Below, piece by piece: positions 6,713 through 62,067 of a stretch of DNA of 64,000 nucleotides. Source of the stretch: Deltaproteobacteria bacterium (GTDB taxonomy: Bacteria; Myxococcota_A; UBA9160; UBA6930); assembly GCA_029261815.1 (NCBI GenBank), contig JAJDAQ010000086.1, positions 47,448 to 111,447 on the forward strand, read 5' to 3'. Under the pieces are notes generated by a model. The model saw only the letters and a program-made list of their open reading frames with translations, ran no database searches and was not told the DNA's origin. The stretch's first letter is position 1, and every line of letters begins with the position of its first letter. The position numbers were made by a program, and so were the translations under genes.

Positions 6713-6783
6713 GAAGTCTCCTCGGGCAGCCGGACACAGGCGTGCGGGGGAACCCGGCCATGGTATCACCGACGGCGGATCGG

Positions 6784-10653: not shown

Positions 10654-10713
10654 GCCCACCCGGACCGGGTTCGTCTACACTCGCCCGTCCCGTTGCTGGA
10701 GGAACTGGAGCCG

Positions 10714-21383: not shown

Positions 21384-21457
21384 AGGGCCGCGAGCCGAGG
21401 CCACGGGTGGCGCCCGGCCGTCCGCTCTCCTTCTACTCCCCATCCAAGGAAGATCCC

Positions 21458-22372
21458 ATGAGCACATTTTGTGAAGATCGCGTCTGCATCGTGACGGGCG
21501 CTGGACGTGGCATTGGCCGCGAATACGCACTCATGCTCGCCTCCCACGGCGCCAAGGTCGTTGTGAACGACCTTGGGGGCGCTCGCGATGGCAGTGGCGC
21601 CGACCTGGGCCCGGCCGACGAAGTGGTGGCCGAGATCAAGGCCGCCGGCGGCGAAGCGGTCGCCAACGGCTCGGACGTGTCGGACTTCGGCCAGGCGAAG
21701 GAAATGATCGAACAGGCGGTGGATACCTATGGCCAGCTCGACGTCGTCGTGAACAACGCCGGGATCCTGCGCGACCGGATGCTGGTGAACATGGAGGAGA
21801 GCGAGTGGGACGCCGTGATCCAGGTGCATATGAAGGGCACGTTCTCGCCCGCCCATCATGCGGCTGCCTATTGGCGCAACCTGAGCAAGGCCGGCAACCC
21901 GGTCGACGCGCGACTCATCAATACGACGTCGGTGTCGGGCATCTACGGAAATGCCGGTCAGACCAACTATGGCGCCGCAAAGGCCGGCATCGCGGCGTTT
22001 TCGATCATCGCGAGCCGCGAACTCAAGCGTTACGGCATCACCGTCAACTGCATCGCGCCGGGCGCGCTAACGCGCCTGACCGAGGACCTGCAGCCGGGCG
22101 AAATCACCGATGAGATGCGCGAGCGGCAGAGTCCCCGCTGGATCGCCCCGATCGTGACCTGGCTCGCGAGCCGCGAGTCGAGCGATGTCACGGGTCGGGT
22201 CTTCGAGGCGTCCGGCGGCGTGCTGGCGATCGCCGAGGGCTGGCATCGTGGCCCGCGCGTGGATCCGGTCGAGGACCCGACCACGCTGGGCCCCATCGTG
22301 CGAAACATGGTCAAGGAAGCGCGCCTGAATGCCGGAATGAACGGCGAAGATCAGGACGGCGGACTCGGCTGA
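21458..22372 (+). CDS. SDR-family oxidoreductase (extended, 3-hydroxyacyl-CoA-dehydrogenase-like)
   Basis: ATG at 21458 follows AAGGAAG. Motifs CIVTGAGRGIGREYAL, NNAG, YGAAKAG; 304 aa. Confidence 0.85.
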   Translation: MSTFCEDRVCIVTGAGRGIGREYALMLASHGAKVVVNDLGGARDGSGADLGPADEVVAEIKAAGGEAVANGSDVSDFGQAKEMIEQAVDTYGQLDVVVNNAGILRDRMLVNMEESEWDAVIQVHMKGTFSPAHHAAAYWRNLSKAGNPVDARLINTTSVSGIYGNAGQTNYGAAKAGIAAFSIIASRELKRYGITVNCIAPGALTRLTEDLQPGEITDEMRERQSPRWIAPIVTWLASRESSDVTGRVFEASGGVLAIAEGWHRGPRVDPVEDPTTLGPIVRNMVKEARLNAGMNGEDQDGGLG

Positions 22373-22405: not shown

Positions 22406-22419
22406 TTGAACATGTTTCA
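22406..22419. promoter_or_regulatory. Operator-like palindrome TTGAACATGTTTCA (site 1 of a tandem pair)
   Basis: Fits TnnAACnnGTTnnA. It is an AT-rich patch in the intergenic region upstream of the carotenoid-oxygenase operon. Confidence 0.6.
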
Positions 22420-22424
22420 AGCGA

Positions 22425-22438
22425 TTGAACATGATAAA
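22425..22438. promoter_or_regulatory. Operator-like site TTGAACATGATAAA (site 2, 19 bp downstream of site 1)
   Basis: The left half-site is perfect and the right half degenerate. It overlaps an extended -10-like TGATAAAGT on the + strand. Confidence 0.5.
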
Positions 22439-22514
22439 GTCGGCGGCGCGAGGGCACTCCCGCCCCGCCGACGCGGGCTGTCCGGCCCCTGCTGAGTCCC
22501 GAGAGGAGCGCCAC

Positions 22515-23852
22515 ATGGCTGCCAGTCCCGAAGAGAAGCCCTTCCACCTGCAGGGCAACTTCGCCCCGGTTCCCGAAGAGATGACCGAGGAGAACCTCGA
22601 GGTCATCGGCGCGATCCCGCCCGAACTCTCCGGCCTCTACGTCCGAAACGGCTCGAACCCGGCCACGGGTGAGTCCGAGCACTGGTTCCTGGGCAACGGC
22701 ATGGTCCATGGCGTCCGCCTCGATGGCGGCAAGGCCTCGTGGTACCGGAACCGCTACGTGCAGTCCTTGATGCTCACCGACCCCGATGCCAAGCGGATCT
22801 CGGACAAGGGTGAAATGGACTACCGCGTCTCGGCCGCCAACACGCACGTGCTCAAGCATGGCGGAAAGCTCCTGGCGCTTGAGGAAGGCTCCTTCCCGTA
22901 CGAGCTGACGGATGAGCTCGAGACGGTCGGTGCCTTCAACTACGGCGGCAAGCTGAACACCTCCTTCACTGCGCACCCGCACATCTGCCCCGTCACGGGC
23001 GAGATGATCGGCTTCGGCTACGGCCAGCTTCCGCCCTACCTGACCTATCACCGCATCAGCCCGGACGGCAAGCTCGTGCAGTCGGAGGTCATCGATGTGC
23101 CCGGCCCGACGATGATGCACGACTTCTCGATCTCCGAGAAGCACGCGCTGTTCATGGACCTGCCGGTCGTGTTCGATATGCAGGCCGCACTCGCAGGCAC
23201 CATGCCGTTCAAGTGGAGCGACGACTATGGCGCCCGCATTGGCATCATGCCCCGGACCGGCGGCAACGCCGATGTGAAGTGGTTCGAAATCGATCCCTGC
23301 TATGTCTTCCATACCGTGAACGCATGGGACGAAGGCAACAAGGTGGTGTTCGATGTCTGCCGCATCAGTGAAGTCTGGCGTGACGCAGGCGACATGGGTG
23401 GCGGCAACGGAAAGCAGACGCTGCATCGCTTCACCTTCGACCTCGACACCGGAAACGTCGGTGAACAGACCCTGGACGAACGCGGCATGGACTTCCCGCG
23501 CGTGGCAGATGCCCGGGTCGGCCTGAAGAACCGCTACGCCTACACGCTGCAGTTCGGCGAGCTCGGTTCCTTCGCGGGTCATCTCAAGTTCGACCTCCAG
23601 ACCGGAAAGAGTGAGCTTCACGCCTATCCCGAGGGAGCGTCTCCGGCCGAGGCCGTCTTCGTGGCGGCGCCGGGTGCTGATGCGGACTCCGACGAGGGAT
23701 GGGTCATGAACTACGTCTACGACGACGGCTCCGGAAAGAGCGAACTCGTCATCCTCGACGCACAGAATTTCAGCGGCGATCCGGTGGCCCGGGTCAAGTT
23801 GCCGCAACGCGTTCCCTTCGGTTTCCACGGCAGCTGGGCCGGCGACGCCTAG
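22515..23852 (+). CDS. Carotenoid cleavage oxygenase family protein
   Basis: ATG at 22515 follows GAGAGGAG. N-terminal signature LQGNFAPVPEE...LEVIGAIPPELSGLYVRNGSNP and MMHDFSISEKHALFMDLP. Confidence 0.85.
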   Translation: MAASPEEKPFHLQGNFAPVPEEMTEENLEVIGAIPPELSGLYVRNGSNPATGESEHWFLGNGMVHGVRLDGGKASWYRNRYVQSLMLTDPDAKRISDKGEMDYRVSAANTHVLKHGGKLLALEEGSFPYELTDELETVGAFNYGGKLNTSFTAHPHICPVTGEMIGFGYGQLPPYLTYHRISPDGKLVQSEVIDVPGPTMMHDFSISEKHALFMDLPVVFDMQAALAGTMPFKWSDDYGARIGIMPRTGGNADVKWFEIDPCYVFHTVNAWDEGNKVVFDVCRISEVWRDAGDMGGGNGKQTLHRFTFDLDTGNVGEQTLDERGMDFPRVADARVGLKNRYAYTLQFGELGSFAGHLKFDLQTGKSELHAYPEGASPAEAVFVAAPGADADSDEGWVMNYVYDDGSGKSELVILDAQNFSGDPVARVKLPQRVPFGFHGSWAGDA

Positions 23853-23933
23853 CGAGCCTCCCCTTCAGGTCCGCGCGTCCGTTGGAGGGGTTCCACGGCG
23901 CTTCGGGCCTGCTCTTTGATTCGAGGAGAAATC

Positions 23934-26489
23934 ATGCGCCTTCGCCCGGTGTGCATGTTCATCGTGTTCCTGACGCTCGTGCTCCTGGCGAGTCCCGCGT
24001 TTGCACAGGCAGATGCGGAAACAGACGAACTACGGGATATCGACGAGATCGTCGTCAACATCACCAAGCGGACCGAGTCGCTGCAGGAGGTTTCCGGCAC
24101 CTTCAGCGTCTTCGATTCATCGATCATTCGCGAGACGAATATCGAGCGGATCGCGGATGCGGTGGCGCTGATCCCGAACGTGCAGATCAAGGGCGGCTCG
24201 AACCAGTCGATCTCGATCCGTGGCATCTCGCAGTCGATCGTGTCGCAGTCTCCGGTCGCGCGGCACGTCAACGGCGTCTTCAAGTTCGACAACGAAGCGT
24301 ACACGGGCCACTTCTACGACCTCGAGAACATCCAGGTCGCGCGCGGGCCGTCGGGCACCGTCTATGGCCGCAACGCAACGGCGGGCGCCATCGACTTGCA
24401 ATGGAAGCAGCCCCACGACGAATGGGAAGTCTTCGGCGACATCACGCTGGCGAACACCGACCGCTACCACTTCCGCGGTGGGGTGAACATTCCGTTCCTG
24501 GGCGAAGGGAACGAGAAGTTGATGGGTCGGCTTGTGATCCAGCGCGAAATCCACGACGGCTGGGTCGACAACGAGCTGACCACCCGCAACAACGACCCGG
24601 ACAAGGGCGACGATTTCTTTGCGCGCTTCAGCCTGAAGTCCGTAATCAGCGAAGACACGGAGGTCATCGGTCGCGGCTACTACCACCGACGTGAAGATGG
24701 CATCGCGTCGAGTACCCCGGTCCTGAATACCTTCACCGAGGGCCTGCTGCGATTGCCGGCGCCCCTTGGCGTCGTGCGTACCGATCCCTTCAACGGCTAC
24801 ACAAAGTTCAAGGCCGACATCCTGGCGAACCCGGCCGTGGGCGCCGTCTACACGCTCTTCTCGAACGCGACCGCGGCGAACTGCATGATCATGGCGCCCG
24901 CATGCCCGGATGGCTCGATCCAGACGCCGGATGACGCGCTCGAGTACTTCCTGGTCAACGGAATCAACGCGTTCGGCGGCATCCCCGGCTTCTTCCGGAG
25001 CACCGAAGTCTTCAATACGCCCCAGGCCATCCAGCAGGGCGACCGGCAGACCCGGAATAGCGCCCATCGGCTCGGGGACGGGAAACTCGAAGTCTGGGGC
25101 TTCGACGGTCAGTTCGACACGCGGCTCCCCAACGTTCCGGGCCTCGGCGACGTCGGCTTCACCCTCATCGGGGGCTGGGAGCATTTCGAGCGGAACTTGC
25201 TGACGGATCTCGACGGCACCGAGCTCCTGGTCCTCGATGTATCGAACCAGTTCGAAGAGAATCTCTACACAGCGGAATTCCGGTTCTCATCAGAGGGAGA
25301 CGGACCGGTCAATTGGATCGCCGGCTTCTTCTGGTTCACCCGTGACCGCGACTCGGTCCAGGACACGGTCGTCTCGTTCGTGACGCCGGAGGCTAACTCG
25401 ACGGTGAAGGAGAGCGGCTTCGCGCCGTTCATCAACATCCAATGGGACATCATCGACTCGGTGACGCTTGAGGGCGGTGTCCGCTGGAACCGCGACCGAT
25501 TCTTCATCGACCGACTTGACCCGGCGACCTCGGTGCAGCCTTTCGATCTTCAGCTCCGGGCTGCCGAGAAGTTCCGCGAGACGACCTACGAGGCCAAGAT
25601 CAACTGGGAAATCACGGAAGATCACCACCTCTACGCGAAGTTCGCCCACGGCTACAAGGGTGGGCTTCTCGAGTTGGACATCAGCGGTGCCGTCGCACAG
25701 CTCCAGGCACTGGTCCCGCCGGAAAGCGTCAACTTCAAGAATGTGGCGAGTCCGGAACTGATCGACGCCTTCGAAGTCGGACTGCGGACCCAGTGGCTCG
25801 ACGGCATGATCACGGCCAACCTGACCGCGTTCTACTACGACTACACCGATCTCCAGGTCACCCAGATCACGGGTGCCCAGATCCTCACCGAGAACGCCGG
25901 TGAGGCAACGATCCAGGGGCTCGAGCTTGAACTCGTGGTCGCGCCCACCGAGAACTGGCTGATCATGTTTTCTGCCGGCTACCTCGACGCCGAGTTCGAC
26001 ACCTTCTGCTCCGACGATCCCTTCCAGTTCTTCGCGGTTTCGGAGCCCGGCTGCGCGGCACCGGCCACCAACGCGTTCAATGCTGGCCTCGGACTCGATG
26101 GCAAGAGCAACCTTGCCGGCAACCGGTTGGAAGATTCGCCCGAGTTCGACCTAACCTTCGTCACCCGGTACACGATCGCCCTCGGCGAGTGGGGAACACT
26201 CACCCCCGTTGTCGAGTTCCAATGGACCGACGAATACTTCTCCCGGCCTTACAACCTCCCGATCGACAAGATCGCGTCGCGCTCGAAGACCGACCTGCGG
26301 CTGATCTGGGAAGATGTCGAGAAGAAGTACAGCGTCGAGCTCTTCGTCGAAAATCTCGAGAACGAGACGGTCTTCGGGCAGCGCCTGATCGGTGCCGAGT
26401 TTCAGGGCGGGTTCCCGGTCCAGGTCGGGACGTTCCCGCCGCGGATCTACGGTATCCGGCTCGGCTTCCACTTCGGTGGCGACAGCTGA
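23934..26489 (+). CDS. TonB-dependent receptor (paralog of 4208-6712)
   Basis: ATG at 23934 follows GAGGAG. Signal peptide MRLRPVCMFIVFLTLVLLASPAFA. Plug motifs DEIVVNITKRTESLQEV and IQVARGPSGTVYGRNATAGAIDL. Confidence 0.85.
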   Translation: MRLRPVCMFIVFLTLVLLASPAFAQADAETDELRDIDEIVVNITKRTESLQEVSGTFSVFDSSIIRETNIERIADAVALIPNVQIKGGSNQSISIRGISQSIVSQSPVARHVNGVFKFDNEAYTGHFYDLENIQVARGPSGTVYGRNATAGAIDLQWKQPHDEWEVFGDITLANTDRYHFRGGVNIPFLGEGNEKLMGRLVIQREIHDGWVDNELTTRNNDPDKGDDFFARFSLKSVISEDTEVIGRGYYHRREDGIASSTPVLNTFTEGLLRLPAPLGVVRTDPFNGYTKFKADILANPAVGAVYTLFSNATAANCMIMAPACPDGSIQTPDDALEYFLVNGINAFGGIPGFFRSTEVFNTPQAIQQGDRQTRNSAHRLGDGKLEVWGFDGQFDTRLPNVPGLGDVGFTLIGGWEHFERNLLTDLDGTELLVLDVSNQFEENLYTAEFRFSSEGDGPVNWIAGFFWFTRDRDSVQDTVVSFVTPEANSTVKESGFAPFINIQWDIIDSVTLEGGVRWNRDRFFIDRLDPATSVQPFDLQLRAAEKFRETTYEAKINWEITEDHHLYAKFAHGYKGGLLELDISGAVAQLQALVPPESVNFKNVASPELIDAFEVGLRTQWLDGMITANLTAFYYDYTDLQVTQITGAQILTENAGEATIQGLELELVVAPTENWLIMFSAGYLDAEFDTFCSDDPFQFFAVSEPGCAAPATNAFNAGLGLDGKSNLAGNRLEDSPEFDLTFVTRYTIALGEWGTLTPVVEFQWTDEYFSRPYNLPIDKIASRSKTDLRLIWEDVEKKYSVELFVENLENETVFGQRLIGAEFQGGFPVQVGTFPPRIYGIRLGFHFGGDS

Positions 26490-26535
26490 TCATTCGAACG
26501 CACAAGTCTCTCGAAGCAGACCGGAAGGAGGGACT

Positions 26536-27798
26536 GTGAGTACGGCAGTCGATCTCAACAAGTACGACCCGATGGCGCGGGATGTCCAACAGGACCCCTA
26601 CCCGTACTACGAAGCGCTACGTCGCGACGCGCCAGTGTTCCAGCATCCGAAGTCGGGGATCTACTTCGTGTCGCGCCTGGACACCGTGAACCACGTGTTC
26701 GCGAATCCGGGTCTCTTCTCGTCGCAGTTCAGCAACACGGGTACGCCGCCCGGGTCGCCGGGCCTCGGCGCGAAGCTCAAGGAGATCGCGTCGAAGGGGC
26801 AGCCCCAGATCAACACGATGTTGACGGCTGATCCGCCCGATCAGACGCGTTACCGCAAAACCGTCGGGCGTGCGTTCTCGACACGCAGGATCCTTGCGCT
26901 CGAACCCGTGATTCGGGAAATCACGCGCGACCTCATCGCTCAATGGCCGGACGAGGGGACCGTGGACTTCGTCAACACGTTCTCGGTGCCGTTTCCGGTC
27001 CGCGTGATCGCGCACACCCTCAACATGGCGCCCGAAGCCGTCGACAAGATCAAGTGGTGGTCGGACGCATCGGTCGCCACGCTCGGCGTGGCGCTCAGCG
27101 AAGAGGATCGGATCGCGGCGGCAGAGGGCGTCGTCGAGTCCCACCAGTACTGGGCCCGGGAGTTTGCTGCGCGACTGGCGGAGCCGCGCGACGATTTCCT
27201 CACGGAGCTGACCCAGGCGTCGTTTGTCGAGCAGAGCGGTGATTCCCGGACGCTCGAGATGCCCGAACTCGTGAGCATCATCCTCCAACTCATGGTGGCC
27301 GGGAACGAAACGACCACGAAACTCGTCAACGAGACGGTGAAGCTGTTGATCGAGAATCCCGCGGAGTGGAAGCGGATCCAGGAAGACCCGTCGACGATCC
27401 CGGCCATGGTCGAAGAGGCACTGCGCATGTCGAGCCCCAACCAGGGTCTCTTCCGGATCGTGAAGGAAGACACCGAGCTCGACGGCGTTTCGATCCCGGC
27501 CGGTTCCACGCTCTGGGTGATGTTCGGTGCGGCGAACCGCGACGAGCGGTTCTTTCCCGAGCCCGACAAGTTCGACCCGACGCGCGAGAACGTGCGCGAC
27601 CACATTGCCTTCGGAAAGGGCGCCCACTTCTGCATCGGAGCCCCGCTCGCCCGGCTCGAAGCCAGGGTCTGTTTCGAGGAACTGTCCTCGGCGATCGCCG
27701 ATTGGAAGTTCTCGGACGGAAACACGTTCGAGTACGAGCCGAGCTACATCCTGCGAGGACTCAAGAACCTGTCTCTCGATATCCGGAAGGCACGCTAG
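26536..27798 (+). CDS. Cytochrome P450
   Basis: GTG at 26536 follows GGAAGGAGGG. I-helix LMVAGNETTT, EXXR region and heme loop FGKGAHFCIGAPLA. Confidence 0.9.
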   Translation: MSTAVDLNKYDPMARDVQQDPYPYYEALRRDAPVFQHPKSGIYFVSRLDTVNHVFANPGLFSSQFSNTGTPPGSPGLGAKLKEIASKGQPQINTMLTADPPDQTRYRKTVGRAFSTRRILALEPVIREITRDLIAQWPDEGTVDFVNTFSVPFPVRVIAHTLNMAPEAVDKIKWWSDASVATLGVALSEEDRIAAAEGVVESHQYWAREFAARLAEPRDDFLTELTQASFVEQSGDSRTLEMPELVSIILQLMVAGNETTTKLVNETVKLLIENPAEWKRIQEDPSTIPAMVEEALRMSSPNQGLFRIVKEDTELDGVSIPAGSTLWVMFGAANRDERFFPEPDKFDPTRENVRDHIAFGKGAHFCIGAPLARLEARVCFEELSSAIADWKFSDGNTFEYEPSYILRGLKNLSLDIRKAR

Positions 27799-28587
27799 GT
27801 GCCGGCGCTCGAGGGGCAAGTCGCCGTCGTCATCGGTGGCTCCGGCGGGTTTGGAGAGGGAATCGTAGAGCGATTCGTCGCGGAAGGCGCCACGGTCTGG
27901 ATCGCGGCGCGCGATGAGACGCGTGCCGCGGAAGCTGCCGCCCGGCTTGGCGCCCGTGCCTTCCCCTGCGACATCACGAAGAGCGCCGACGTCAAGGCGC
28001 TGGCCGACCGCGTCCTGTCCGAATCCGGCCGAATCGACATCGCCGTGAACTCAGCCGGCTATGAAGACAACTGCGCGATCGCCGACCTGGAACCCGACCG
28101 CGTGGAGCGCATGGTCGCGGTCCAGTTCACGGGAGCGCTCTACGTCATTCAGCACATGGCGAATGCGATGGCTGCGGGTGGCTCGATCATCACGATCGGC
28201 TCGTTGACAGCGACGCTGACGGCCGATGGCTACGCGCCGTACGCAGGTGCGAAGGCCGGGATCAACCATGCCACGCGCATCGCGGCCGCCGAGTACGGCC
28301 CGAAGGGCGTTCGGGTGAACGTCGTCTCCGCCACGCTCGTCGAAACCCCGATGACGGCCGCGATCACGAATGCGCCCGGTGTGCGAAGAGCGTTCGTGGC
28401 CGAGACGCCACTTGGACGTTTCGGCAGCATCGATGACATCGTCAACGCGGTCTTCTGGTTGGCGTCCGACCAGAGCGCCTTCGTGACCGGACAGAATCTC
28501 CACATCGACGGAGGGACGTCTCTCCGCCGTCTTCCGACGGTGGCGGACTTCATTCGTTCTGCCCAGGAAGAGGCAGCCGAAAGCTAG
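27799..28587 (+). CDS. SDR-family oxidoreductase
   Basis: GTG immediately after the P450 stop. Motifs VAVVIGGSGGFGEG and YAGAKAG. Confidence 0.8.
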   Translation: MPALEGQVAVVIGGSGGFGEGIVERFVAEGATVWIAARDETRAAEAAARLGARAFPCDITKSADVKALADRVLSESGRIDIAVNSAGYEDNCAIADLEPDRVERMVAVQFTGALYVIQHMANAMAAGGSIITIGSLTATLTADGYAPYAGAKAGINHATRIAAAEYGPKGVRVNVVSATLVETPMTAAITNAPGVRRAFVAETPLGRFGSIDDIVNAVFWLASDQSAFVTGQNLHIDGGTSLRRLPTVADFIRSAQEEAAES

Positions 28588-29318
28588 GCGGGCGGGTCCG
28601 GTCCCAGGTAGACCGAGATCTCCACAGCGTCCGGCACGTTCGAGTACTCGATATGCGCTTCGCGCGTTTCTGACTCGTAGCGTCCACAGCCGCGTACGTA
28701 GCCGAGGTAATCCTCGGGAGCGAAGACGTCGCCGGTATTGTCGGCAACGATGATCGCGCCCGGCTGGATCAAACCGTGAGCTTCCAGGCTTTCGAGGTCT
28801 GCGCGGTAGAGATCCTTCCAGTGGTCCAGGAAGACCAGGTCGAAGGGGCCGTCCAGCTTGGGGATCTCCTCGTCCGACGCTGCGCATCGCAGGTCGACGC
28901 GGTCGGCGAAGCCCGCGCGCGCGATGTTGTCGCTTGCTGCTTCGTAGGCGTTCTGGTCCTTTTCGATCGAGACCAGCCGTCCGCCGTCGCCGAGCCGCTG
29001 GCAGATCATGATCGCCGAATAGCCGCAGTATGCGCCGAGTTCGAGCACGCGCGCATCTCCACGCAAGCGCCCGATCATTTCCGTGAGAAGAGGCCCCTTG
29101 TCGGGGCCGACGCTCATCAGGAAGCGCTCTTCGACCGCATAACGGTCGAGCGCCGCCAGGACACCCTCGGCGTCGCCGGGCGAAACGCGCTCGGCGACGT
29201 AGTCGCGTGCGCGCAGTGCCCTGGGGGGCGCGCCCGTCACCCGATCGATCGCAAAGTGGAGGACGTTTCGTGCCGCCCAGGGAAGGGCCTTGGGCGTGAG
29301 CATTCTCGAGAGGTTCAT
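28584..29318 (-). CDS. Class I SAM-dependent O-methyltransferase (catechol-O-methyltransferase-like)
   Basis: Motif I VLELGAYCGYSA, then DLVFLDHWKD and IIVADN. The start at 29318 (MNLSRML) is chosen to leave a divergent promoter gap. The listed ATG at 29384 is an alternative. Confidence 0.75.
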   Translation of the reverse strand: MNLSRMLTPKALPWAARNVLHFAIDRVTGAPPRALRARDYVAERVSPGDAEGVLAALDRYAVEERFLMSVGPDKGPLLTEMIGRLRGDARVLELGAYCGYSAIMICQRLGDGGRLVSIEKDQNAYEAASDNIARAGFADRVDLRCAASDEEIPKLDGPFDLVFLDHWKDLYRADLESLEAHGLIQPGAIIVADNTGDVFAPEDYLGYVRGCGRYESETREAHIEYSNVPDAVEISVYLGPDPPA

Positions 29319-29399
29319 GCAGACAGTCTGGCACACTCGGGCCGGCTCGGATGCTAGGGTCGCCTCTCGTCTCGTGACCTCCAACGGAAGGAGTCTCGT

Positions 29400-30251
29400 A
29401 TGAAGATCGGTGTATCCAACTTCCCGACAGACTATTCGATCTCAGCGGTTGCTCTCGGCCGAGCCTGCGAGGAACGCGGCTTCGAGTCGTTGTGGGTGAC
29501 GGAGCACACGCATATCCCGGCGTCGCGGCGCACCCCGCATCCCTCGGGCGCGCCGCTCCCTAGCATCTACTGGGAGAGCTACGAGCCCTTCACTTTCCTG
29601 GCCCAGGTGGCGGCCGTGACCGAGCGCCTTCGCATCGGTACCGGGATCTGCCTCGTGCCTGAGCATCATCCGATCGCGCTCGCCAAGCGGGTCGCTTCAC
29701 TCGACTCGCTCTCGGGCGGCCGCTTCGATTTTGGAGTGGGTGCCGGGTGGAACGCGGAGGAGTTGGAGCATCACGGAGTCGCATTCAAGGACCGCTGGAA
29801 GATCCTGGCCGAGTCCGTCGCAGCCATGAAGCGGATGTGGACGGAGAAGGAGCCCGAGTTCCACGGCCATTGGGTGGATTTCGAGAAGGTCTGGGTGGAA
29901 CCGAAGCCCGCGCAGAAGCCGCATCCGCCGGTTCATGTGGGCGCCAGTTCGAAGTGGGCCATTGAACGTGTGGCCGAATTCGGGGACGGGTGGATGCCGA
30001 TCCTGGGTTCGTGTGACATCGACGAGCGAATGGACCAGCTCAAACGGCTCTGCGACGAGAAGGGGCGGGATCCGGGGGCCATCGAGATCTCGGTCTTTGC
30101 TGCGCCGGGCAAGAAGGCGGCGCTCGAAGCATTGGCCAAGCAGGGCGTCGATCGGGTGATCCCGTTGCTCCCGACGCGGGACGAAGATCAATCTCTCCGC
30201 TGGTTGGACGAGCACGCGTCACTGGTCGAATGGGCTCAGGATCTGGCCTGA
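29400..30251 (+). CDS. Luciferase-like (LLM class) flavin/F420-dependent oxidoreductase
   Basis: MKIGVSNFPTDY...FESLWVTEHTHIP, GRFDFGVGAGWN, KPHPPVHVGA; RBS GGAAGGAG. Confidence 0.8.
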   Translation: MKIGVSNFPTDYSISAVALGRACEERGFESLWVTEHTHIPASRRTPHPSGAPLPSIYWESYEPFTFLAQVAAVTERLRIGTGICLVPEHHPIALAKRVASLDSLSGGRFDFGVGAGWNAEELEHHGVAFKDRWKILAESVAAMKRMWTEKEPEFHGHWVDFEKVWVEPKPAQKPHPPVHVGASSKWAIERVAEFGDGWMPILGSCDIDERMDQLKRLCDEKGRDPGAIEISVFAAPGKKAALEALAKQGVDRVIPLLPTRDEDQSLRWLDEHASLVEWAQDLA

Positions 30252-30282
30252 AGGCTGGGCGGCGGTGTCTATGGCCGGCCAA

Positions 30283-30296
30283 TTTCACGCGTTTAA
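30283..30296. promoter_or_regulatory. Operator-like site TTTCACGCGTTTAA (site 1 of a tandem pair)
   Basis: Degenerate match to the shared palindrome, upstream of the TetR gene. Confidence 0.4.
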
Positions 30297-30301
30297 ACGA
30301 A

Positions 30302-30315
30302 TTGAATCGGTTAAA
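30302..30315. promoter_or_regulatory. Operator-like site TTGAATCGGTTAAA (site 2, 19 bp downstream), overlapping -10-like TAAAAT
   Basis: It ends 8 nt before the GTG start of the TetR gene at 30324. The same GTTAAAATCC string precedes the second TetR gene. Confidence 0.5.
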
Positions 30316-30323
30316 ATCCCCGC

Positions 30324-31016
30324 GTGCGATTGATGGCCCAGCAGAAACTCGAGCGACGGGAACGCATCCTTGCGGCCGCGCGCGAGTTGATCGCCGAGTT
30401 GCCTTACAAGGAAATCACGGTGCGCGAGCTGGCCCGGCGCTGTCGCGTCTCGGTGCCCACGCTGTACAACCAGTTCGGCGGCAAGGACGCCTTGCTGGCA
30501 GCGGCGGTCGAGTCGCAATTCCGCGAGGCCCTTTCGGAGATGGTCCCCCCGGAAGAACTGCCGGGCGCAGAGCGGATCCTGGGCATGGTCTCGCGGGTCG
30601 CCCGCCAGACGACGGAGCTCGCGGAGTACCACGCTTCGCTGATCCAGGCATTCGCCGAAGAACAACACCAGACCGAGGCAATTCAGCAATCCCTGGCCGT
30701 TGAACTCACCCGGTCGTTCGCCCAGGAACTCGAGGCGATGGCGGCGAAACGTCAGTTGGCCGAGTGGGTCGATTGCGGGGTGCTGGCCGTCCAGCTCACA
30801 ACCGCGTGTATCAGTGCATCCGTGATCTGGGGCCAGGGAATGGTCGACGACGAGGGGCTCGACGCGTTCATGCGTCACGGGGCCGCGACGCCGATCCTGG
30901 CATGCGCCCGCGGACCGGTTCGCGCAGAGCTCGAGGCCGTTGTGCGGGAGGCGCAGGATCATCTCCGTGAGGCGCTGACGATTCCCGAGGACGCGGCCAC
31001 CGAAGAAACCGCGTAG
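30324..31016 (+). CDS. TetR-family transcriptional regulator (paralog of 46943-47617)
   Basis: HTH region ITVRELARRCRVSVPTLYNQFGGKDALL. The N-terminus MRLMAQQKLERRERIL aligns with MTLLAQQMAERRERIL of the paralog, which supports the GTG start. Confidence 0.85.
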   Translation: MRLMAQQKLERRERILAAARELIAELPYKEITVRELARRCRVSVPTLYNQFGGKDALLAAAVESQFREALSEMVPPEELPGAERILGMVSRVARQTTELAEYHASLIQAFAEEQHQTEAIQQSLAVELTRSFAQELEAMAAKRQLAEWVDCGVLAVQLTTACISASVIWGQGMVDDEGLDAFMRHGAATPILACARGPVRAELEAVVREAQDHLREALTIPEDAATEETA

Positions 31017-31814: not shown

Positions 31815-34241
31815 CTAAAAGGTCCCGCCAATCTCGAGGCCGATGTATCGCGGCGGTGCCCAGGTCTGGAAGCCGACCGACGGCAGGGCCTGCTCTATGT
31901 ATTCGGTGTTCCCCAGGTTCTTGCCCACCAGTGCGACCCGGTAGTCGACCCGGTCGCTCGACCACTCGTAGGCGATCGTGCTGTCAACGAGGTTGTAGGA
32001 GTCGATGCCAAAGGGCGTTCCAAAGGCACTGGGGATGAAGATGATGTCGTCCTGGTGCTTCCAGCGGACATCGGCGATGAGCGTGCCGGGACCGATCTCC
32101 AGGGTGTAGGTCGTTCCGACGGTGAAGGAGAACTTCGGTGACCGGACCAGCTGCCCGCCGCCGACGTTCACCATGCAGTTCGCCGGATCCACTTGGCAAG
32201 TCGGTCCCGCGGTTCCGTTCAGTCCCAGCGGCAGTTGTTCTGCGCGCTGGGTGCTGTCCGCGATGTCGCCTGTCTGATAGCCGGCGGAACCGTAGAAGCG
32301 GATCATCTCGTTGAAGGCCCAGCTCGTCTCGAGTTCAACACCCTCGACCTGGACCTCCTCGCCGTTGAGCTGGAACGTATTGGTTCCGGGTCCGACGCCC
32401 GGCGTTTGGATGATCGAGATCGTCTGCGGGTCTTCGGTCGTCGACTTGAAGGCGGAGAGGTTCACGATCAAGGAGCTGTCGAACCACTCGCTCCGGATCC
32501 CGACCTCATACTGCTCGAGGGTCTCCGGCTCGTAGGTCAGGTACGTCGGGTCGACGCCACGGTTCGAGAAACCGCCACTTCGGAACCCTTGCCCGTACGA
32601 GAAGTAGACCATGACATTCTCGTTGATGCGGTAGTCGGTCGAAGCCTGGAACACCACGTCGTTCCAGTCGTCGTCCGCGCGCAGCTTGTCGCCGCCCCCG
32701 ATCGGCACCAGGACGCCGGCCGCGCCGGGCGTATTGGTTAGGCGGAACGAGGTCTCGAAGTCCTTCTCTTCGTAGATGTACCGGACGCCGGCGGAGGCGT
32801 TCCAGTCCTCGGTGATTGCGAATGTCGCAGACCCGAAGACCGACCATGAGTCGTCCTTCTCCCGCGTGCGCTGGGTGACCGGCGGCGAGGCCAGGAGGCA
32901 CATCGCTCTTCCGCCGACGACGGCGCCGTTGTTCCCACCGATGACTGCACACGGCAGCGGCATGGGCAGCGGATTCGGGATCTGGATGACCTGGTTGGTC
33001 TCCTGTCGGATGGAGGCATCGTGATGCCAGAGGAATACACCGGCGGTCACGCTGAGGCGCTCGTCGAGGTACGTGTGCGTCCAACGCAGTTCCTGGGAGA
33101 ACTGATCGAATGCCTGGGACCGCGTCGTATGAAGCTGTGCGAACGGGGTGTTCGGGTCGATCGGCCCCGGGAACGGAGCGAGGTTGAATGGCAGAGCGCA
33201 GGTCACGTTGGTTACGCCACACACGCCACCGTCGAAGTCCTGCAGTGCCTTGTCGGAGCTGTCCATGTATGAGGTGACGGACTCGAATGTCCCGAAGTCG
33301 GTTTCCCACGTGATTTCGAGGCTGAAGATCTGAGCGTCGAACGCGATCCCTTCCTCCGGCATCCGGTCGGAGCGGCCCATGTGCGGGTCGTCGCCGTTGA
33401 ACAGGGCATCCTGGTTCTTCAGGCCGCCGCGGTCCTGCATCCAATCCCAGTTGGCAAGGACACTCAGGTTCTCGGTCGGCTCCCAGAGCAGCTTGGCGTT
33501 GATGGCTTCGTAGTCGACGTCGCCGCTATCCGCGCCGGTTAGGCTGTTCTGCGAGAAGCCGTTCCCGTCCTTGCGGATGTAGCCGACGCGAAGCGCCAAC
33601 TGGTCCTTGATGATCGGGATGTTGCCCACGCCCTGGATCGTCCAGATGTCGCCGTCGCCGGGGCCGTCGAAGTTTCCGAAGGAGCCCTTCAGCCGCCCGC
33701 CGTACTCTTCGAGATTCGGGCGTTTGCGCCGCACGGAGATCGTGCCGCCCGTGGTGTTCTTCCCGAATAGCACCGTCTGCGGGCCGCGGTTGATCTCGAC
33801 CTGCTCGATGTCGAACGTGTCGAGAATCTGGCCGGTGCTGGTTCCCAGGAAGACGTTGTCGATCAGGACGCCGACCGGAGGCGCCTGCGTTCGATCCACG
33901 TCGCTGTACCCCTGCCCGCGGATGTAGATCGCGGCCTGGCCCGCGCCCGAGTTCTGTTGGCCGATGAAGACGTTCGGCGCGAGGCCGTCAAAATCTCGTA
34001 GCGTGCTAGGCGCCACGGATTCGATCAACGCCTGGTCGAACGCGGTCACCGCGACGGGCACGTCCTGGATCGACTCAGCGCGCTTGCGCGAATAGACCAG
34101 GATCTCGTCGATGTCCTTGAGTTCGCCGTCGCCTTCTGACGGCACGACGGCGGTATCCTGCGCGAGCGCGGGACCGCCCATCAGCGCGGCCATCAGGAGC
34201 GGAAGAAGCAACGAGGCCCGGAGGCCGTGGTATCTCGACAT
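31815..34241 (-). CDS. TonB-dependent receptor (paralog of 36349-38721)
   Basis: The start at 34241 gives signal peptide MSRYHGLRASLLLPLLMAALMGGPALA. Plug motifs DEILVYSRKRAESIQDV and VEINRGPQTVLFGKNTTGGTISV. C-terminal Phe. Confidence 0.85.
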   Translation of the reverse strand: MSRYHGLRASLLLPLLMAALMGGPALAQDTAVVPSEGDGELKDIDEILVYSRKRAESIQDVPVAVTAFDQALIESVAPSTLRDFDGLAPNVFIGQQNSGAGQAAIYIRGQGYSDVDRTQAPPVGVLIDNVFLGTSTGQILDTFDIEQVEINRGPQTVLFGKNTTGGTISVRRKRPNLEEYGGRLKGSFGNFDGPGDGDIWTIQGVGNIPIIKDQLALRVGYIRKDGNGFSQNSLTGADSGDVDYEAINAKLLWEPTENLSVLANWDWMQDRGGLKNQDALFNGDDPHMGRSDRMPEEGIAFDAQIFSLEITWETDFGTFESVTSYMDSSDKALQDFDGGVCGVTNVTCALPFNLAPFPGPIDPNTPFAQLHTTRSQAFDQFSQELRWTHTYLDERLSVTAGVFLWHHDASIRQETNQVIQIPNPLPMPLPCAVIGGNNGAVVGGRAMCLLASPPVTQRTREKDDSWSVFGSATFAITEDWNASAGVRYIYEEKDFETSFRLTNTPGAAGVLVPIGGGDKLRADDDWNDVVFQASTDYRINENVMVYFSYGQGFRSGGFSNRGVDPTYLTYEPETLEQYEVGIRSEWFDSSLIVNLSAFKSTTEDPQTISIIQTPGVGPGTNTFQLNGEEVQVEGVELETSWAFNEMIRFYGSAGYQTGDIADSTQRAEQLPLGLNGTAGPTCQVDPANCMVNVGGGQLVRSPKFSFTVGTTYTLEIGPGTLIADVRWKHQDDIIFIPSAFGTPFGIDSYNLVDSTIAYEWSSDRVDYRVALVGKNLGNTEYIEQALPSVGFQTWAPPRYIGLEIGGTF

Positions 34242-34425
34242 CAAGCGTCCCCTCGCCAACGGACATCGATGCGGCATTGGGTTGAGTGATGCATCCGCGA
34301 TGTCCGGGCCCAGCTATTCTCTCATGCAACCGAGCGGATGCGGTGCCCGAAATTGGCCTTTTTTGGGGGCCGAAGCGGCAGTTATTCCGCGATTGAACGA
34401 GGCCTTCGGGCCCGAGGAGCCACGC

Positions 34426-36282
34426 TTGTCACGGACCCGATCCATCTTTTTGTTGGCGGTTCTCGTCGCTTCTTCCGCCGGCGCCCAAACCGTCGGTTAT
34501 TCGCCACACGTGGATGCAGATTTCCCCCGACAGGTGTACTGGGGAGATACCCACCTCCACACGAACCTCTCGCTCGATGCGAACATGTTGGGCAACGTTG
34601 GGCAGACGGCGGCCGATGCCTATCGTTTTGCCCGTGGAGAGACCGTGGTCGCCACGAACGGCGAGCCGGTGAAACTTCGTCGTCCCCTCGATTTCCTCGT
34701 GGTCGCCGACCACGCGGAGTATCTGGGCGTCCTCGATGGCCTCCGCCGAGAAGACGAGACGCTCCTGACGAACGCCACCGCGCGCCGCTGGCAGGCCGCG
34801 TTCGCCAAGGGCGATACCACGCCGTTCCAGGAGTTCGCGGCATCGCTAAGTGAGGGCAAGAGCCGCCTCGTGAACCCGGCATTCGACCGCATCGGATGGG
34901 ATGCGCAGATCGCCTACGCCGAAGCATTCAATACCCCGGGCGTCTTCACCGCGTTCATCGGGTACGAGTGGACCTCGATGCCCGGTGGAAACAACCTTCA
35001 CCGGGTCGTCGTCTTCCGGGACGACGCCGAGCGTGCGCGACAGACACTGCCATTCAGCGCCTTTGACAGCGACGCACCCGAGGACCTCTGGGCCTTCCTG
35101 GCCCGTTACTCGGAAGACACTGGCGGCGAAGCGCTCTCGATCGCGCACAACCCGAACCTGAGCGGCGGTCGCATGTTCTCGATGAACGACACCGACGGAC
35201 AGCCCCTGACCCGCGAACAAGCCGCGACCCGCGCTCGCTACGAGCCGCTCGTCGAAGTCACGCAGTACAAGGGTGACAGCGAGGCCCATCCGTACCTCTC
35301 GCCCGAGGACGAGTTTTCGGACTACGAATCCTGGGACCGGGCCAATATCTCGTTCGCCGAAGTGCATCGCGACGAGTGGTTCGCCGGAGAGTACGCGCGT
35401 TCGGCCCTTCGTCGTGGTCTCCAGGTCGCGAAGCGATCGGGCGCCAACCCGTTCCGTTTCGGCATGATCGGCAGCACGGACGCCCACACGGGTCTGGCTG
35501 CCGCCGATGAGGATGATTGGTGGGGAAAGTTTGCGGCCAACGAGCCTGGGCCGAAGCGCTGGAACACCACACTGACGGGCACCCAGCTGCCGGTCCCGGT
35601 GTACCAGTGGCAGATGGCGGCATCCGGCTACGCCGCCGTGTGGGCCCGGGAGAACACCCGGGCGTCGCTCTTCGATGCCATGAAGCGACGCGAGACCTAT
35701 GCGACCACGGGGCCGCGGATGGTGGTGCGGTTCTTCGGCGGCCGAGACTTCGCCGCGCCGGACGCGCACGTCCCTGACCTCGCCCGGCTCGGCTACGCGA
35801 AGGGCGTGCCGATGGGCGCCGTCCTTCCCGCCGACGACGCGGGCCGCGCTCCGAGTTTCCTCGTCAGCGCGTTGCGCGACCCGGATGGCGCGAATCTAGA
35901 CCGCGTGCAGATCATCAAGGGCTGGGTCGATGGATCTGGCGAATCGCACGAGCAGGTGTTCGATGTTGCTTGGGCCGGGGACCGAAAGCCGAACCGCAAG
36001 ACAGGGCGACTGCCCGCCGTCGGTGACACGGTCGATGTCGCCAGCGCGACCTACGCGAACACGATCGGCGCGCCCGTCCTCACCGCCGTCTGGCAGGACC
36101 CAGGTTTCGATCCGGCCCAGCACGCGTTCTACTACGCGCGCGTGATCGAGATTCCCACGCCGCGCTGGACGCTGTACGACGCCGTTCGCTACGGCATCGA
36201 ACTCCCCGACGAAGTCCCGCTGACCACCCAGGAACGCGCCTACACCTCACCGATCTGGGTCGAGCCGCAGGAAGGCAACTAA
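34426..36282 (+). CDS. DUF3604-family secreted protein (PHP-like metallohydrolase fold)
   Basis: TTG at 34426 lies 6 nt after GAGGAG and gives signal peptide MSRTRSIFLLAVLVASSAGA. HxH-type motif GDTHLHTNLS. Paralog of 2-1801. Confidence 0.8.
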   Translation: MSRTRSIFLLAVLVASSAGAQTVGYSPHVDADFPRQVYWGDTHLHTNLSLDANMLGNVGQTAADAYRFARGETVVATNGEPVKLRRPLDFLVVADHAEYLGVLDGLRREDETLLTNATARRWQAAFAKGDTTPFQEFAASLSEGKSRLVNPAFDRIGWDAQIAYAEAFNTPGVFTAFIGYEWTSMPGGNNLHRVVVFRDDAERARQTLPFSAFDSDAPEDLWAFLARYSEDTGGEALSIAHNPNLSGGRMFSMNDTDGQPLTREQAATRARYEPLVEVTQYKGDSEAHPYLSPEDEFSDYESWDRANISFAEVHRDEWFAGEYARSALRRGLQVAKRSGANPFRFGMIGSTDAHTGLAAADEDDWWGKFAANEPGPKRWNTTLTGTQLPVPVYQWQMAASGYAAVWARENTRASLFDAMKRRETYATTGPRMVVRFFGGRDFAAPDAHVPDLARLGYAKGVPMGAVLPADDAGRAPSFLVSALRDPDGANLDRVQIIKGWVDGSGESHEQVFDVAWAGDRKPNRKTGRLPAVGDTVDVASATYANTIGAPVLTAVWQDPGFDPAQHAFYYARVIEIPTPRWTLYDAVRYGIELPDEVPLTTQERAYTSPIWVEPQEGN

Positions 36283-38857: not shown

Positions 38858-38871
38858 TTGCACGTGTTAAA
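38858..38871. promoter_or_regulatory. Operator-like site TTGCACGTGTTAAA
   Basis: It lies in the divergent region between the receptor (38721, minus) and the SDR (38941, plus). It is embedded in the larger inverted repeat TTGCAC-N10-GTGCAA (38858-38879) and overlaps TGTTAAATT. Confidence 0.5.
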
Positions 38872-41217: not shown

Positions 41218-41231
41218 TTTAACATGTTTAA
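41218..41231. promoter_or_regulatory. Operator-like palindrome TTTAACATGTTTAA
   Basis: It lies in the divergent region between the crotonase (41168, minus) and the E1-alpha gene (41285, plus). The minus strand reads TGTTAAAAT (41216-41224), an extended -10-like element. Confidence 0.6.
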
Positions 41232-46846: not shown

Positions 46847-46919
46847 AACAGGGGTCGTCTTGCGCGTTGGTGGGCCGAATTCTTGCCGGAGACACGATTC
46901 CGTGCGCCCAAAGGTCGGC

Positions 46920-46933
46920 TTTATCGTGTTAAA
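46920..46933. promoter_or_regulatory. Operator-like site TTTATCGTGTTAAA overlapping extended -10-like TGTTAAAAT
   Basis: It ends 9 nt before the ATG of the TetR gene at 46943. TAAAAT at 46930-46935 lies 7 nt from the start codon and no Shine-Dalgarno is visible. Confidence 0.55.
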
Positions 46934-46942
46934 ATCCTTCGC

Positions 46943-50091: not shown

Positions 50092-50106
50092 GTTCGAGGG
50101 AAGATC

Positions 50107-50304
50107 GTGGCGTTTGAAGTGCAGGTGGACCGCACCCGTTGCCGCGGTTCGAGGTCATGCGTGCGGCGCGCGCCGGGTACTTTTTCGCTCGATGAGGAGC
50201 GTATCGCGGTCGTTGCAGAGCGTCCGACGGACTCCGAAGAGGCGATTCGCGAAGCCGCTGCCGTTTGTCCATTCTTTGCGATCTCTACCAAGGAGACTCG
50301 ATGA
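50107..50304 (+). CDS. Small single-cluster ferredoxin
   Basis: 65 aa with Cys pattern C-x5-C ... CP (RCRGSRSC ... AAVCPFFAI). GTG follows GAGGGAAG. Confidence 0.7.
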   Translation: MAFEVQVDRTRCRGSRSCVRRAPGTFSLDEERIAVVAERPTDSEEAIREAAAVCPFFAISTKETR

Positions 50305-62047: not shown

Positions 62048-62067
62048 CCCGCGCGGAGGTCCGTCCC

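Follow-up and report, generated by a model that had tools for sequence, protein, structure and literature searches.

Background

What does a carotenoid-cleavage-type oxygenase do when the next gene downstream encodes an outer-membrane receptor? The question is raised by a stretch of 64,000 nt, called the window below, from a 'Deltaproteobacteria bacterium' genome (GCA_029261815.1, contig JAJDAQ010000086.1, positions 47,448 to 111,447 of the forward strand). In the window a gene for an enzyme of the carotenoid-cleavage-oxygenase (CCO) superfamily is followed by genes for a TonB-dependent receptor (TBDR), a cytochrome P450 and a classical short-chain dehydrogenase/reductase (SDR). An initial annotation, made from the sequence by eye, described the four genes as one motif-controlled unit dedicated to the uptake and oxidation of a polyene or isoprenoid substrate. 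The analysis presented here supports this interpretation in part: the unit, the affinity of the CCO, the dedicated receptor and the remark on the redox partners of the P450 stand, and the substrate class is drawn from homology and context.

Our preferred reading, to which we assign a probability of about 0.5, is that, in this uncultured bacterium of Myxococcota type, the four genes form an operon repressed by a TetR-family regulator (TetR1); the receptor would import an exogenous carotenoid-derived compound, the CCO would cleave a conjugated C=C bond, the P450 and the SDR would oxidise the fragment and the surrounding catabolic island would consume it. The operon and its regulator, taken by themselves, are very probable parts of this reading, and a substrate of carotenoid/apocarotenoid type is probable on the grounds of homology and gene context.

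Carotenoids are made in very large amounts, and marine dissolved organic matter has been suggested to derive in large part from them and their breakdown products, yet no bacterial pathway for their uptake and consumption is known to have been described. CCOs, substrate-type TBDRs, P450-SDR pairs and TetR operators are each known, and it is their combination that is new: the literature searched contained no report of a carotenoid-type oxygenase linked to a TBDR, nor of a bacterial carotenoid-catabolic operon.

Results and discussion

Organization of the four-gene unit

The four genes are intact and co-directional (Table 1), with gaps of 81 nt (CCO/TBDR), 46 nt (TBDR/P450) and 0 nt (P450/SDR); coordinates and gaps were found exactly as the initial annotation had given them. 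Real reading frames were chosen by third-position G+C, the G+C content of the window being 62-71%. The CCO gene has the ribosome-binding site GAGAGGAG 7 nt upstream of its ATG and is preceded by a spacer of 142 nt which contains both boxes of a tandem operator. At the P450/SDR junction the stop codon TAG is followed directly by the start codon GTG, an abutment that suggests translational coupling. A terminator scan gave no terminator-like sites on the + strand between the four genes, and the intergenic RNAs of the unit fold no better than shuffled controls. The Rfam search of the window returned no family and no riboswitch before the receptor, and the tRNA search was likewise without result. 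A longer CCO open reading frame (ORF) from TTG 22425 was rejected, as it would start inside the operator, its extension is unlike a signal peptide and the orthologues begin at the ATG equivalent to 22515.

Conservation of the gene order

In an initial survey of 80 species-representative genomes encoding a CCO relative, a TetR gene was found divergent from the CCO gene in three loci (L002, L003 and L004), a receptor gene after the L003 CCO gene and, near that of L004, a gene for a P450 of 56% identity, and the four-gene order seemed unique to the window. Uniqueness was overturned by orthologues of the P450 and the TBDR in metagenome contigs with full synteny. The order CCO-TBDR-P450-SDR is also present in L084 (ENA ERZ25072999), L085 (JGI 3300034980) and L091/L086 (GCA_029261795.1, a 'Deltaproteobacteria bacterium' metagenome-assembled genome (MAG), and a Logan assembly), that is, in at least three other organisms from independent assemblies, which is more than chance would give. 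The corresponding gaps are 70/60/-1 nt in L084, 34/62/-1 nt in L085 and 32/54/-1 nt in both L086 and L091. Identity to the window proteins across these loci amounts to 72-77% for the CCO, 63-65% for the TBDR, 76-78% for the P450 and 85-86% for the SDR, and to 78-80% and 65-67% for two products encoded further downstream, a luciferase-like oxidoreductase (LLM) and the TetR regulator. A further contig of 4.3 kb (L090, JGI 3300009702) carries the CCO-TBDR pair and the start of a third gene. With order, short gaps and P450/SDR junction kept in three other organisms, and the operator pair footprinted in eight CCO promoters, the proposal of one motif-controlled unit is well supported by comparison of sequences.

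The two halves of the unit also occur apart. In L003 the CCO-TBDR pair stands alone beside a divergent TetR gene, and in L087 and L088 an abutting P450-SDR pair without CCO or TBDR genes lies, behind a different promoter, amid other P450s, a Rieske oxygenase and a CoA ligase. The unit is therefore best regarded, on gene order, as a conserved fusion of two modules, a TetR-controlled CCO-TBDR pair and a P450-SDR pair.

Two observations concern individual CCO copies. The CCO orthologue of L090 (339-1595) has an in-frame TAG soon after the expected start and the gene call begins at a later codon; either a sequencing error or decay of this copy may be the cause. One MAG encodes two CCO paralogues, 70% (L006, JAJDAP010000131.1) and 77% (L091, JAJDAP010000126.1) identical to the CCO of the window; both stand behind a tandem operator, the L091 copy as part of a four-gene unit, and the L006 copy is followed by a convergent gene for an unrelated TBDR, with a ceramidase-like gene nearby.

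Tandem operator and predicted repressor

As had been claimed, the unit lies downstream of a tandem operator. Box 1 (TTGAACATGTTTCAA, 22406-22420) and box 2 (TTGAACATGATAAA, 22425-22438) have their centres 19 bp apart, and the pair is located 75 nt 5' of the CCO start. Box 2 overlaps an extended -10 element, TGaTAAAGT, at 22432-22440, so that its occupancy would exclude RNA polymerase. The motif TTNAACRTGTTNNA, with at most one mismatch, occurs 12 times in the window, where 0.26 occurrences were expected. Eight CCO promoters (window, L084, L085, L091, L003, L002, L004 and L006) and three TetR promoters (window 30282-30317, L084 and L086) could be aligned on a common architecture, the consensus of the 11 being box 1 TTnAACnnGTT, about 8-10 variable bases and box 2 TTGAAC..G.TAAAGT, and in most of them box 2 ends in the extended -10 TGnTAAAGT. 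A scan with the sigma-70 consensus did not detect the CCO promoter, since it has no good -35; it was recognised through the comparative alignment instead. Only 8 of the 88 CCO loci have the tandem operator, all of them in a clade of at least 70% identity, and a TetR1 homologue lies within the fetched DNA in six of these eight.

Two TetR-family regulators are encoded in the window. TetR1 is the best match there to the TetRs divergent from the CCO gene in L002, L003 and L004 (46-47% identity), and its orthologues, 65-67% identical, occupy the equivalent downstream position in L084, L085, L086 and L091. Its own promoter bears a second tandem operator, alignable both with the CCO promoters and with those in front of the TetR genes of L084 and L086. 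The best match and the co-occurrence with the operator lead us to predict that TetR1 represses both the unit and its own gene. In L002, L003 and L004 the divergent TetR and CCO genes share one operator region, whereas in the lineage of the window the TetR gene lies about 6.5 kb 3' and each promoter has a separate operator copy. TetR2 (46883-47617) was considered as the regulator of the unit and is less likely than TetR1, being just 34-35% identical to the same CCO-adjacent TetRs.

Single boxes at four other intergenic sites (Table 1) suggest that the unit belongs to a wider regulon. One of them lies in the TetR2 promoter at 46920, and TetR2 may be in the same regulon; the two regulators are 31% identical, with similar N-termini, which suggests an island-wide regulon common to two paralogous TetRs. 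The operators of KstR, the regulator of actinobacterial steroid catabolism, are AAC-NN-GTT-cored palindromes (TnnAACnnGTTnnA-like). The window resembles a KstR regulon in that TetR-type boxes with this core stand at several promoters of a lipid-catabolic island (22406, 22425, 30282, 38858, 41218, 46920 and 57802), and differs from it in the tandem two-box layout overlapping an extended -10, which is restricted to the CCO and TetR1 promoters. Identity with KstR itself (NF033703) was rejected for both regulators, TetR1 scoring 33 bits and TetR2 42 bits against an equivalog cut-off of 280.

The oxygenase and its nearest characterised relatives

The CCO matches Pfam RPE65 (PF03055) over profile positions 1-468 of 469 with an E-value of 8e-126 and 421 bits against a cut-off of 27, and contains the peptides HLQGNFAPV and YVRNGSNP. 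Its iron ligands His154, His202, His266 and His438 do not vary among 25 homologues and correspond to the histidines of FTAHP, MMHDF, FH and GFHG in CCD1, VP14 and PbLSD; Glu124 is the conserved second-shell Glu. Homologues number in the thousands (about 7,900) and are known just from metagenomes, the nearest being found in Myxococcota and 'Deltaproteobacteria' MAGs and many, at about 52% identity, in Acidimicrobiia; isolate names among them, such as OFTM159, STY1 and TMED88, are weak hints to the habitat.

The initial annotation had placed the enzyme by eye nearer to carotenoid and apocarotenoid enzymes than to stilbene ones, and profile comparisons bear this out. In a phmmer search of PDB the best match was CCD1 of Osmanthus, a carotenoid 9,10-dioxygenase (311 bits), followed by VP14 (207 bits), lignostilbene dioxygenases (LSDs; 172-179 bits), and NOV1 and Synechocystis ACO (about 156 bits each). 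Of the NCBIfam models the best, over the full length, was NF052295 (8'-apo-carotenoid 13,14-cleaving dioxygenase) with 418 bits, against 217 and 201 bits for the LSD models NF053778 and NF053780 (LSD and NOV2), whose cut-offs are 800 and 650, so that the CCO is a member of neither.

Residues of the substrate pocket agree with this ranking. [quoted passage not shown] In the HMMER alignment ALKED of PbLSD stands opposite ALEEG of the CCO: Lys134/135 is replaced by Glu123 and Asp137 by Gly125, both invariant in the family. Glu123 thus occupies a substrate-contact position that is Ser in CCD1 and VP14 and Lys in LSD. LSD Phe-59 (PbLSD Phe61) corresponds to Phe58 of the CCO, a residue also present in CCD1, and Tyr-101 (PbLSD Tyr103) falls in a gapped loop where its alignment to Gly99 is of low confidence. 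A 4-hydroxystilbene or isoeugenol function is, judged by these residues, unlikely.

An AlphaFold2 (AF2) model of the CCO (pLDDT 88.8) has the seven-bladed beta-propeller fold, and Foldseek places it at TMq 0.85-0.89 to CCD1, LSD, ACO, NOV1 and CAO1, with identities of 36-37% to OfCCD1 and 26-29% to LSD, ACO and NOV1. The protein is a 'minimal' member of the family, as CCD1 residues 128-165 (about 38) are cut to 12 (residues 88-99 of the protein), and the model contains a single helix of four residues; the shortened segment and the lone helix indicate that in the model the helical membrane-facing cap is nearly absent.

Plant CCD1 (Osmanthus fragrans; 7VUD, 9M3E) is the closest known enzyme in both sequence and structure (TMq 0.88); both enzymes are seven-bladed propellers with four-His iron coordination and the motifs FxAHP, MxHDF and GFHG. 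The window enzyme differs from it in being about 90 residues shorter with almost no helical cap, in having Glu123-Glu124-Gly125 where CCD1 has Ser-Glu-Ala, and in being bacterial, operon-encoded and receptor-linked. Characterised bacterial CCOs, namely MtCCO (Rv0654), NACOX1, SaCCO and PpCCO, the last from a marine myxobacterium, have been reviewed (PMC5133782). These proteins, and the family of NF052295, are cytoplasmic bacterial CCOs like the window enzyme; they are known to cleave carotenoids or apocarotenals at non-central bonds, and they differ in that none has been reported with a TBDR, a P450 or a TetR operator. LsdA, LSD4, NOV1 and PbLSD have the superfamily, the fold (TM 0.87-0.89), the iron ligands and Phe58 in common with the window CCO, and are set apart by an identity of 26-29% and by the exchanges of the catalytic Lys for Glu and of the tunnel-closing Asp for Gly.

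The receptor

The TBDR has the signal peptide MRLRPVCMFIVFLTLVLLASPAFAQ and a visible TonB-box-like DEIVVN. Pfam places a Plug domain (PF07715) at residues 56-158 and TonB_dep_Rec_b-barrel (PF00593) at 358-814, in the numbering of an 857-aa ORF that begins 6 residues before the chosen ATG, and the barrel is of the 22-strand type. Identity as a siderophore, heme or other curated receptor was rejected, since all NCBIfam models score below cut-off, mostly with matches to the plug only; the siderophore-receptor model TIGR01783 gives 115 bits against 223.5. Near the TBDR gene no genes for a binding protein or an ABC iron-uptake system were found.

That the receptor is dedicated to the oxygenase, as the initial annotation had suggested, is borne out by its phyletic distribution. 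Among 5.8 billion proteins the orthogroup (at least 62% identity) has six members, and all six are encoded directly 3' of a CCO orthologue; the next-best receptors, at most 44% identical, are paralogues such as that of the window itself at 4208-6769. A metagenome scan with receptor peptides yielded one irrelevant match, of 25%. From this linkage the TBDR is predicted to import the substrate of the unit. Comparable TBDR-linked catabolic operons serve other non-sugar organics; in sphingomonads, for example, a lignin-derived biphenyl is reportedly taken up via DdvT. They share with the window a substrate-type TBDR accompanied by cytoplasmic oxygenases, a local repressor and the lack of siderophore-uptake partners. 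The window differs in having a carotenoid-type CCO as partner and a Myxococcota host, a pairing undescribed in the literature searched.

The P450-SDR pair and its redox partners

The P450 matches PF00067 with 109 bits and has the heme-Cys motif FGKGAHFCIG together with AGNETT and EEALR. Its homology is uninformative as to substrate, the PDB matches of about 200 bits being spread over CYP107, CYP109, Vdh, CYP125 and CYP142. The SDR matches adh_short_C2 of Pfam (E-value 8e-65, 219 bits) and contains GGSGGFG and YAGAK. P450 orthologues of 75-79% identity are always followed by the SDR gene, and SDR orthologues of 83-86% identity abut the P450 gene or overlap it by 1 nt (L084-L088 and L091). The P450 is predicted to hydroxylate the substrate or its cleavage product.

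Neither the unit nor its syntenic copies contain a ferredoxin or reductase gene, which agrees with the earlier remark that no redox partner of the P450 is adjacent, and the window ORFs that were scanned against Pfam include no reductase gene either. The one ferredoxin of the window does lie, as had been noted, beside a Rieske oxygenase gene. It is a candidate electron donor for that oxygenase and possibly for the P450.

Acidimicrobiia relatives and the surrounding island

In Acidimicrobiia the CCO genes are flanked by divergently transcribed genes for a Liv-type ABC permease (16 loci) and its binding protein (10 loci), and a Rieske oxygenase gene follows directly in 10 loci; SDRs, a CoA ligase and a PhyH-family dioxygenase are further neighbours. 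The Rieske oxygenase of the window is 53% identical over 440 aa to the CCO-adjacent enzyme of Acidimicrobiia and 56% to that of L004, and in L093 a different Rieske gene begins 22 nt after the CCO gene. The specificity of the window enzyme could not be read from curated models, the best of which, GbcA, was uninformative (130 bits against a cut-off of 670). A set composed of an importer, the CCO, a hydroxylase (P450 or Rieske), an SDR and CoA activation recurs, differently wired, in diderm and monoderm hosts. This recurrence supports an import-coupled catabolic role and ties the Rieske oxygenase and ferredoxin of the window to the unit; import-coupled catabolism looks, from gene neighbourhoods, general for the CCO family. 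Liv-type ABC systems usually carry small soluble solutes, and their presence in Acidimicrobiia accordingly favours a substrate that is smaller and partly soluble, of apocarotenoid size or carboxylated, over a sterol or an intact C40 carotenoid.

The window itself encodes a thiolase of the Ltp type, which has a ChsH2-like partner, and in addition a pair of acyl-CoA dehydrogenases, a hydratase, PhyH and a BC-BCCP-CT fusion protein (biotin carboxylase, BCCP and carboxyltransferase), together with four receptors, two DUF3604 proteins, luciferase-like oxidoreductases, SnoaL-like proteins, a CoA ligase and E1/E2 genes. This content suits, as circumstantial evidence, the breakdown of methyl-branched, isoprenoid-like acyl-CoAs. 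No carotenoid-biosynthesis or rhodopsin genes were present among the window ORFs scanned against Pfam.

Proposed pathway and alternative explanations

In the pathway that we favour, two TetR1 dimers would, without inducer, occupy both boxes and block RNA polymerase, TetR1 also repressing its own promoter; binding of the substrate or a product to TetR1 would allow transcription of the operon. The TBDR would then move an exogenous lipophilic compound with a conjugated double bond across the outer membrane; this cargo most likely derives from a carotenoid and could, for example, be a xanthophyll, an apocarotenoid or a product of carotenoid breakdown. Once it has passed the inner membrane, the CCO, a CCD1-like non-heme-iron enzyme of the cytoplasm, would split a C=C bond into aldehyde or ketone fragments. 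Drawing electrons from a ferredoxin encoded outside the unit (perhaps the one at 50107-50304), the P450 might hydroxylate a fragment, for example at a methyl group or at a ring of ionone type, and the translationally coupled SDR would oxidise the new alcohol, so that the products could pass into the surrounding acyl-CoA island. Such a hydroxylase-dehydrogenase logic is known from terpenoid pathways, e.g. those of camphor and cineole.

Several points weigh against this pathway. NF052295 is the best curated family of the CCO, and the enzyme is nevertheless a non-member, with 418 bits against an equivalog cut-off of 675; it falls under the equivalog cut-off of every curated family, and the substrate is thus unproven. 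The identity of 36-37% to CCD1 is one of those distances at which the substrate range is unreadable, and the fold search (AF2 and Foldseek) fails to separate the carotenoid type of CCD1 from the stilbene type of LSD. The four-gene unit includes no inner-membrane transporter, TonB-ExbBD or P450 reductase. The catechol-type O-methyltransferase gene at 28584-29384 and partners of the Rieske ring-hydroxylase type could point to an aromatic substrate, and the Liv-type ABC systems beside the Acidimicrobiia homologues fit poorly with intact C40 carotenoids. Because the modules occur apart (L003; L087, L088) and the neighbours of close CCO homologues are different (L002, L018, L092 and L093), the four genes, as judged from their arrangement, need not act on one molecule. 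At about 75% identity the relatives with this gene order are rather close kin, and descent instead of selection may account for part of the synteny.

Much of this would suit the same operon logic with another exogenous lipophilic alkene, not derived from a carotenoid, as substrate; terpenoids, polyketides, lipid polyenes and aromatic-conjugated alkenes without a 4-hydroxyl are examples, and the CCO would then have an undescribed activity. We consider this rather unlikely, if still a serious competitor: the CCO lies under every equivalog cut-off, Rieske ring-hydroxylase-type partners occur in L004, L093 and ten Acidimicrobiia loci, the importers beside the Acidimicrobiia homologues belong to a type that usually carries small solutes, and a catechol-type O-methyltransferase gene adjoins the unit in the window, to which may be added the invariant Glu123 at a substrate-contact position and a helical cap much shorter than that of CCD1. 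It has to be set against the wide margin by which carotenoid and apocarotenoid enzymes are the best sequence matches of the CCO, and against an island that fits isoprenoid-type branched-chain oxidation. If the alkene were instead a lignin-derived phenolic stilbene, imported and cleaved by a lignostilbene/isoeugenol-type CCO as in the TBDR-linked lignin-dimer pathways of sphingomonads, then the shortfall from the LSD and NOV2 models (217 bits for a cut-off of 800, 201 bits for one of 650) would be hard to understand, as would the invariant Glu in place of the catalytic Lys-134/135, the lack of a clear counterpart to Tyr-101/103 and the origin of the CCO relatives, which come from Myxococcota, 'Deltaproteobacteria' and Acidimicrobiia MAGs with none from a cultured lignin degrader. 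We regard such a function as very improbable, despite the LSDs being the second-best group of structural matches (TM 0.88-0.89), the catechol type of the neighbouring O-methyltransferase and the known TBDR-dependent uptake of lignin-derived dimers in sphingomonads.

The genes could also be adjacent by descent, with the receptor importing an unrelated cargo (for instance an iron complex for the Fe and heme enzymes), or with the CCO acting on endogenous carotenoids to yield a signal or a retinal-like compound. The JGI label of homologous receptors, 'iron complex outermembrane receptor protein', would agree with the former, and the separate occurrence of CCO-TBDR and P450-SDR modules and the just moderate divergence of the full-order relatives would be expected under adjacency by descent. 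It is made improbable by the scores of the TBDR below the siderophore, heme and other curated receptor cut-offs with mostly plug-confined matches, by the failure to find binding-protein or ABC iron-uptake genes nearby together with the predicted TetR-operator control, and by the receptor orthologues, six of six of which adjoin a CCO across two gene arrangements; cleavage of endogenous carotenoids sits badly with a window lacking carotenoid-biosynthesis and rhodopsin genes, and four TBDRs in one catabolic island fit substrate receptors. Import and cleavage of a carotenoid-derived compound under TetR1 control remains the reading that we prefer.

A bolder claim would be that the locus is the first dedicated bacterial scavenging system for environmental carotenoid-derived compounds, in which a carotenoid/apocarotenoid-specific TBDR feeds a CCD1-like CCO and a P450-SDR pair, and these in turn lead into a complete catabolic island for isoprenoid chains, in Myxococcota of marine or host-associated habit; Acidimicrobiia would have an analogous version with an ABC importer. 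We put this forward tentatively and with more doubt than belief. Were it true, bacteria that consume carotenoids and the products of carotenoid breakdown would be recognisable by a CCO clade which is widespread and as yet uncharacterised; should the substrate be non-carotenoid, the CCO superfamily would still gain a new class of substrates. Either way the locus is a concrete, testable candidate, with a receptor orthogroup confined to one oxygenase clade, an identifiable repressor and operator, and partner oxygenases. It suggests that a large CCO clade, seen so far in metagenomes alone (from Myxococcota, Acidimicrobiia and other groups), functions in import-coupled catabolism, and TetR1 with its operator could become a biosensor for the true ligand.

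Neighbouring genes and other features of the window

Table 1 Features of the window discussed in the text (positions are those of the whole stretch)
Feature	Position	Strand	Remarks
CCO, CCD1-like	22515-23852	+	445 aa; ATG start; no signal peptide
TonB-dependent receptor	23934-26489	+	851 aa; outer-membrane; ribosome-binding site GAGGAG
Cytochrome P450	26536-27798	+	420 aa; GTG start after GGAGG; class-I type
Classical SDR	27799-28587	+	262 aa; GTG start directly after P450 TAG
Tandem TetR-type operator, promoter of the unit	22406-22440	+	predicted from motif enrichment and conservation across CCO promoters
TetR1, TetR-family regulator	30324-31016	+	predicted repressor; best match in the window to CCO-adjacent TetRs
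Second tandem operator, TetR1 promoter	30282-30317	+	ATTTCACGCGTTTAAACGAATTGAATCGGTTAAAAT
PRK07791-type SDR	21407-22372	+	conserved neighbour directly 5' of the unit; NF005861 (NCBIfam) 394 bits, cut-off 373
Luciferase-like oxidoreductase (LLM)	29400-30251	+	conserved 3' neighbour of the unit; TIGR03619 class, 274 bits, cut-off 167
Alpha-only Rieske oxygenase	48724-50091	+	Pfam Rieske and Ring_hydroxyl_A; distant, recurrent partner of the CCO family
Single-cluster ferredoxin	50107-50304	+	65 aa; Pfam Fer4_15 and Fer4_13; between Rieske gene and ThuA-like gene; sole small ferredoxin-like ORF of the window in a motif scan
Single operator box	38858-38871		intergenic, receptor gene / SDR at 38938
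Single operator box	41218-41231		intergenic, hydratase / E1-alpha gene
Single operator box	46920-46933		intergenic, before TetR2
Single operator box	57802-57815		intergenic, luciferase-like gene / SnoaL-like gene
Single operator box	37055-37068		intragenic

The PRK07791-type SDR gene is also found directly 5' of the CCO gene in L085 and L091 (90-91% identity); as it precedes the operator, it is probably on a separate transcript. On the 3' side the syntenic relatives have a SnoaL-like gene (in L086/L091 an uncharacterised minus-strand ORF), followed by the LLM gene, the TetR gene, another SDR gene and further receptors, the LLM orthologues keeping the same position in L084, L085, L086 and L091. 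In the window the catechol-type O-methyltransferase gene (Methyltransf_3, minus strand) converges on the SDR gene, the two ending in a 4-nt overlap. None of the syntenic relatives has it, the SnoaL-like gene or a small ORF being found there instead; it is thus a lineage-specific insertion that separates the unit from the LLM gene downstream.

The genes for the Rieske oxygenase, the 65-aa ferredoxin and a ThuA-like protein lie together at 48724-51062; Rieske and ThuA-like genes are adjacent in L087 too, and the Rieske family is the commonest direct neighbour of the CCO family in Acidimicrobiia.

Elsewhere in the island, a thiolase gene with a ChsH2-type OB-fold partner is located at 2655-4204. 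The single-chain fusion of biotin carboxylase, BCCP and carboxyltransferase (10693-14118, + strand) has 1141 aa, falls below every curated carboxylase cut-off and stands beside the paired acyl-CoA dehydrogenase genes and the hydratase gene. The two dehydrogenase genes (14141-16389) are adjacent and slightly overlapping, and the first product is without a match to the Pfam middle domain of acyl-CoA dehydrogenases; they resemble the heteromeric pairs of such enzymes that act in steroid or branched-chain side-chain oxidation. The DUF3604 genes lie at 2-1801 and 34111-36282 (Pfam E-values 1e-155 and 2e-235), the second being inserted between two receptor genes, where the relatives have none. A 1102-aa ORF at 58739-62047 (+ strand) has good coding statistics and no Pfam match, and in the last part of the window, 62000-64000, G+C rises up to 71%.

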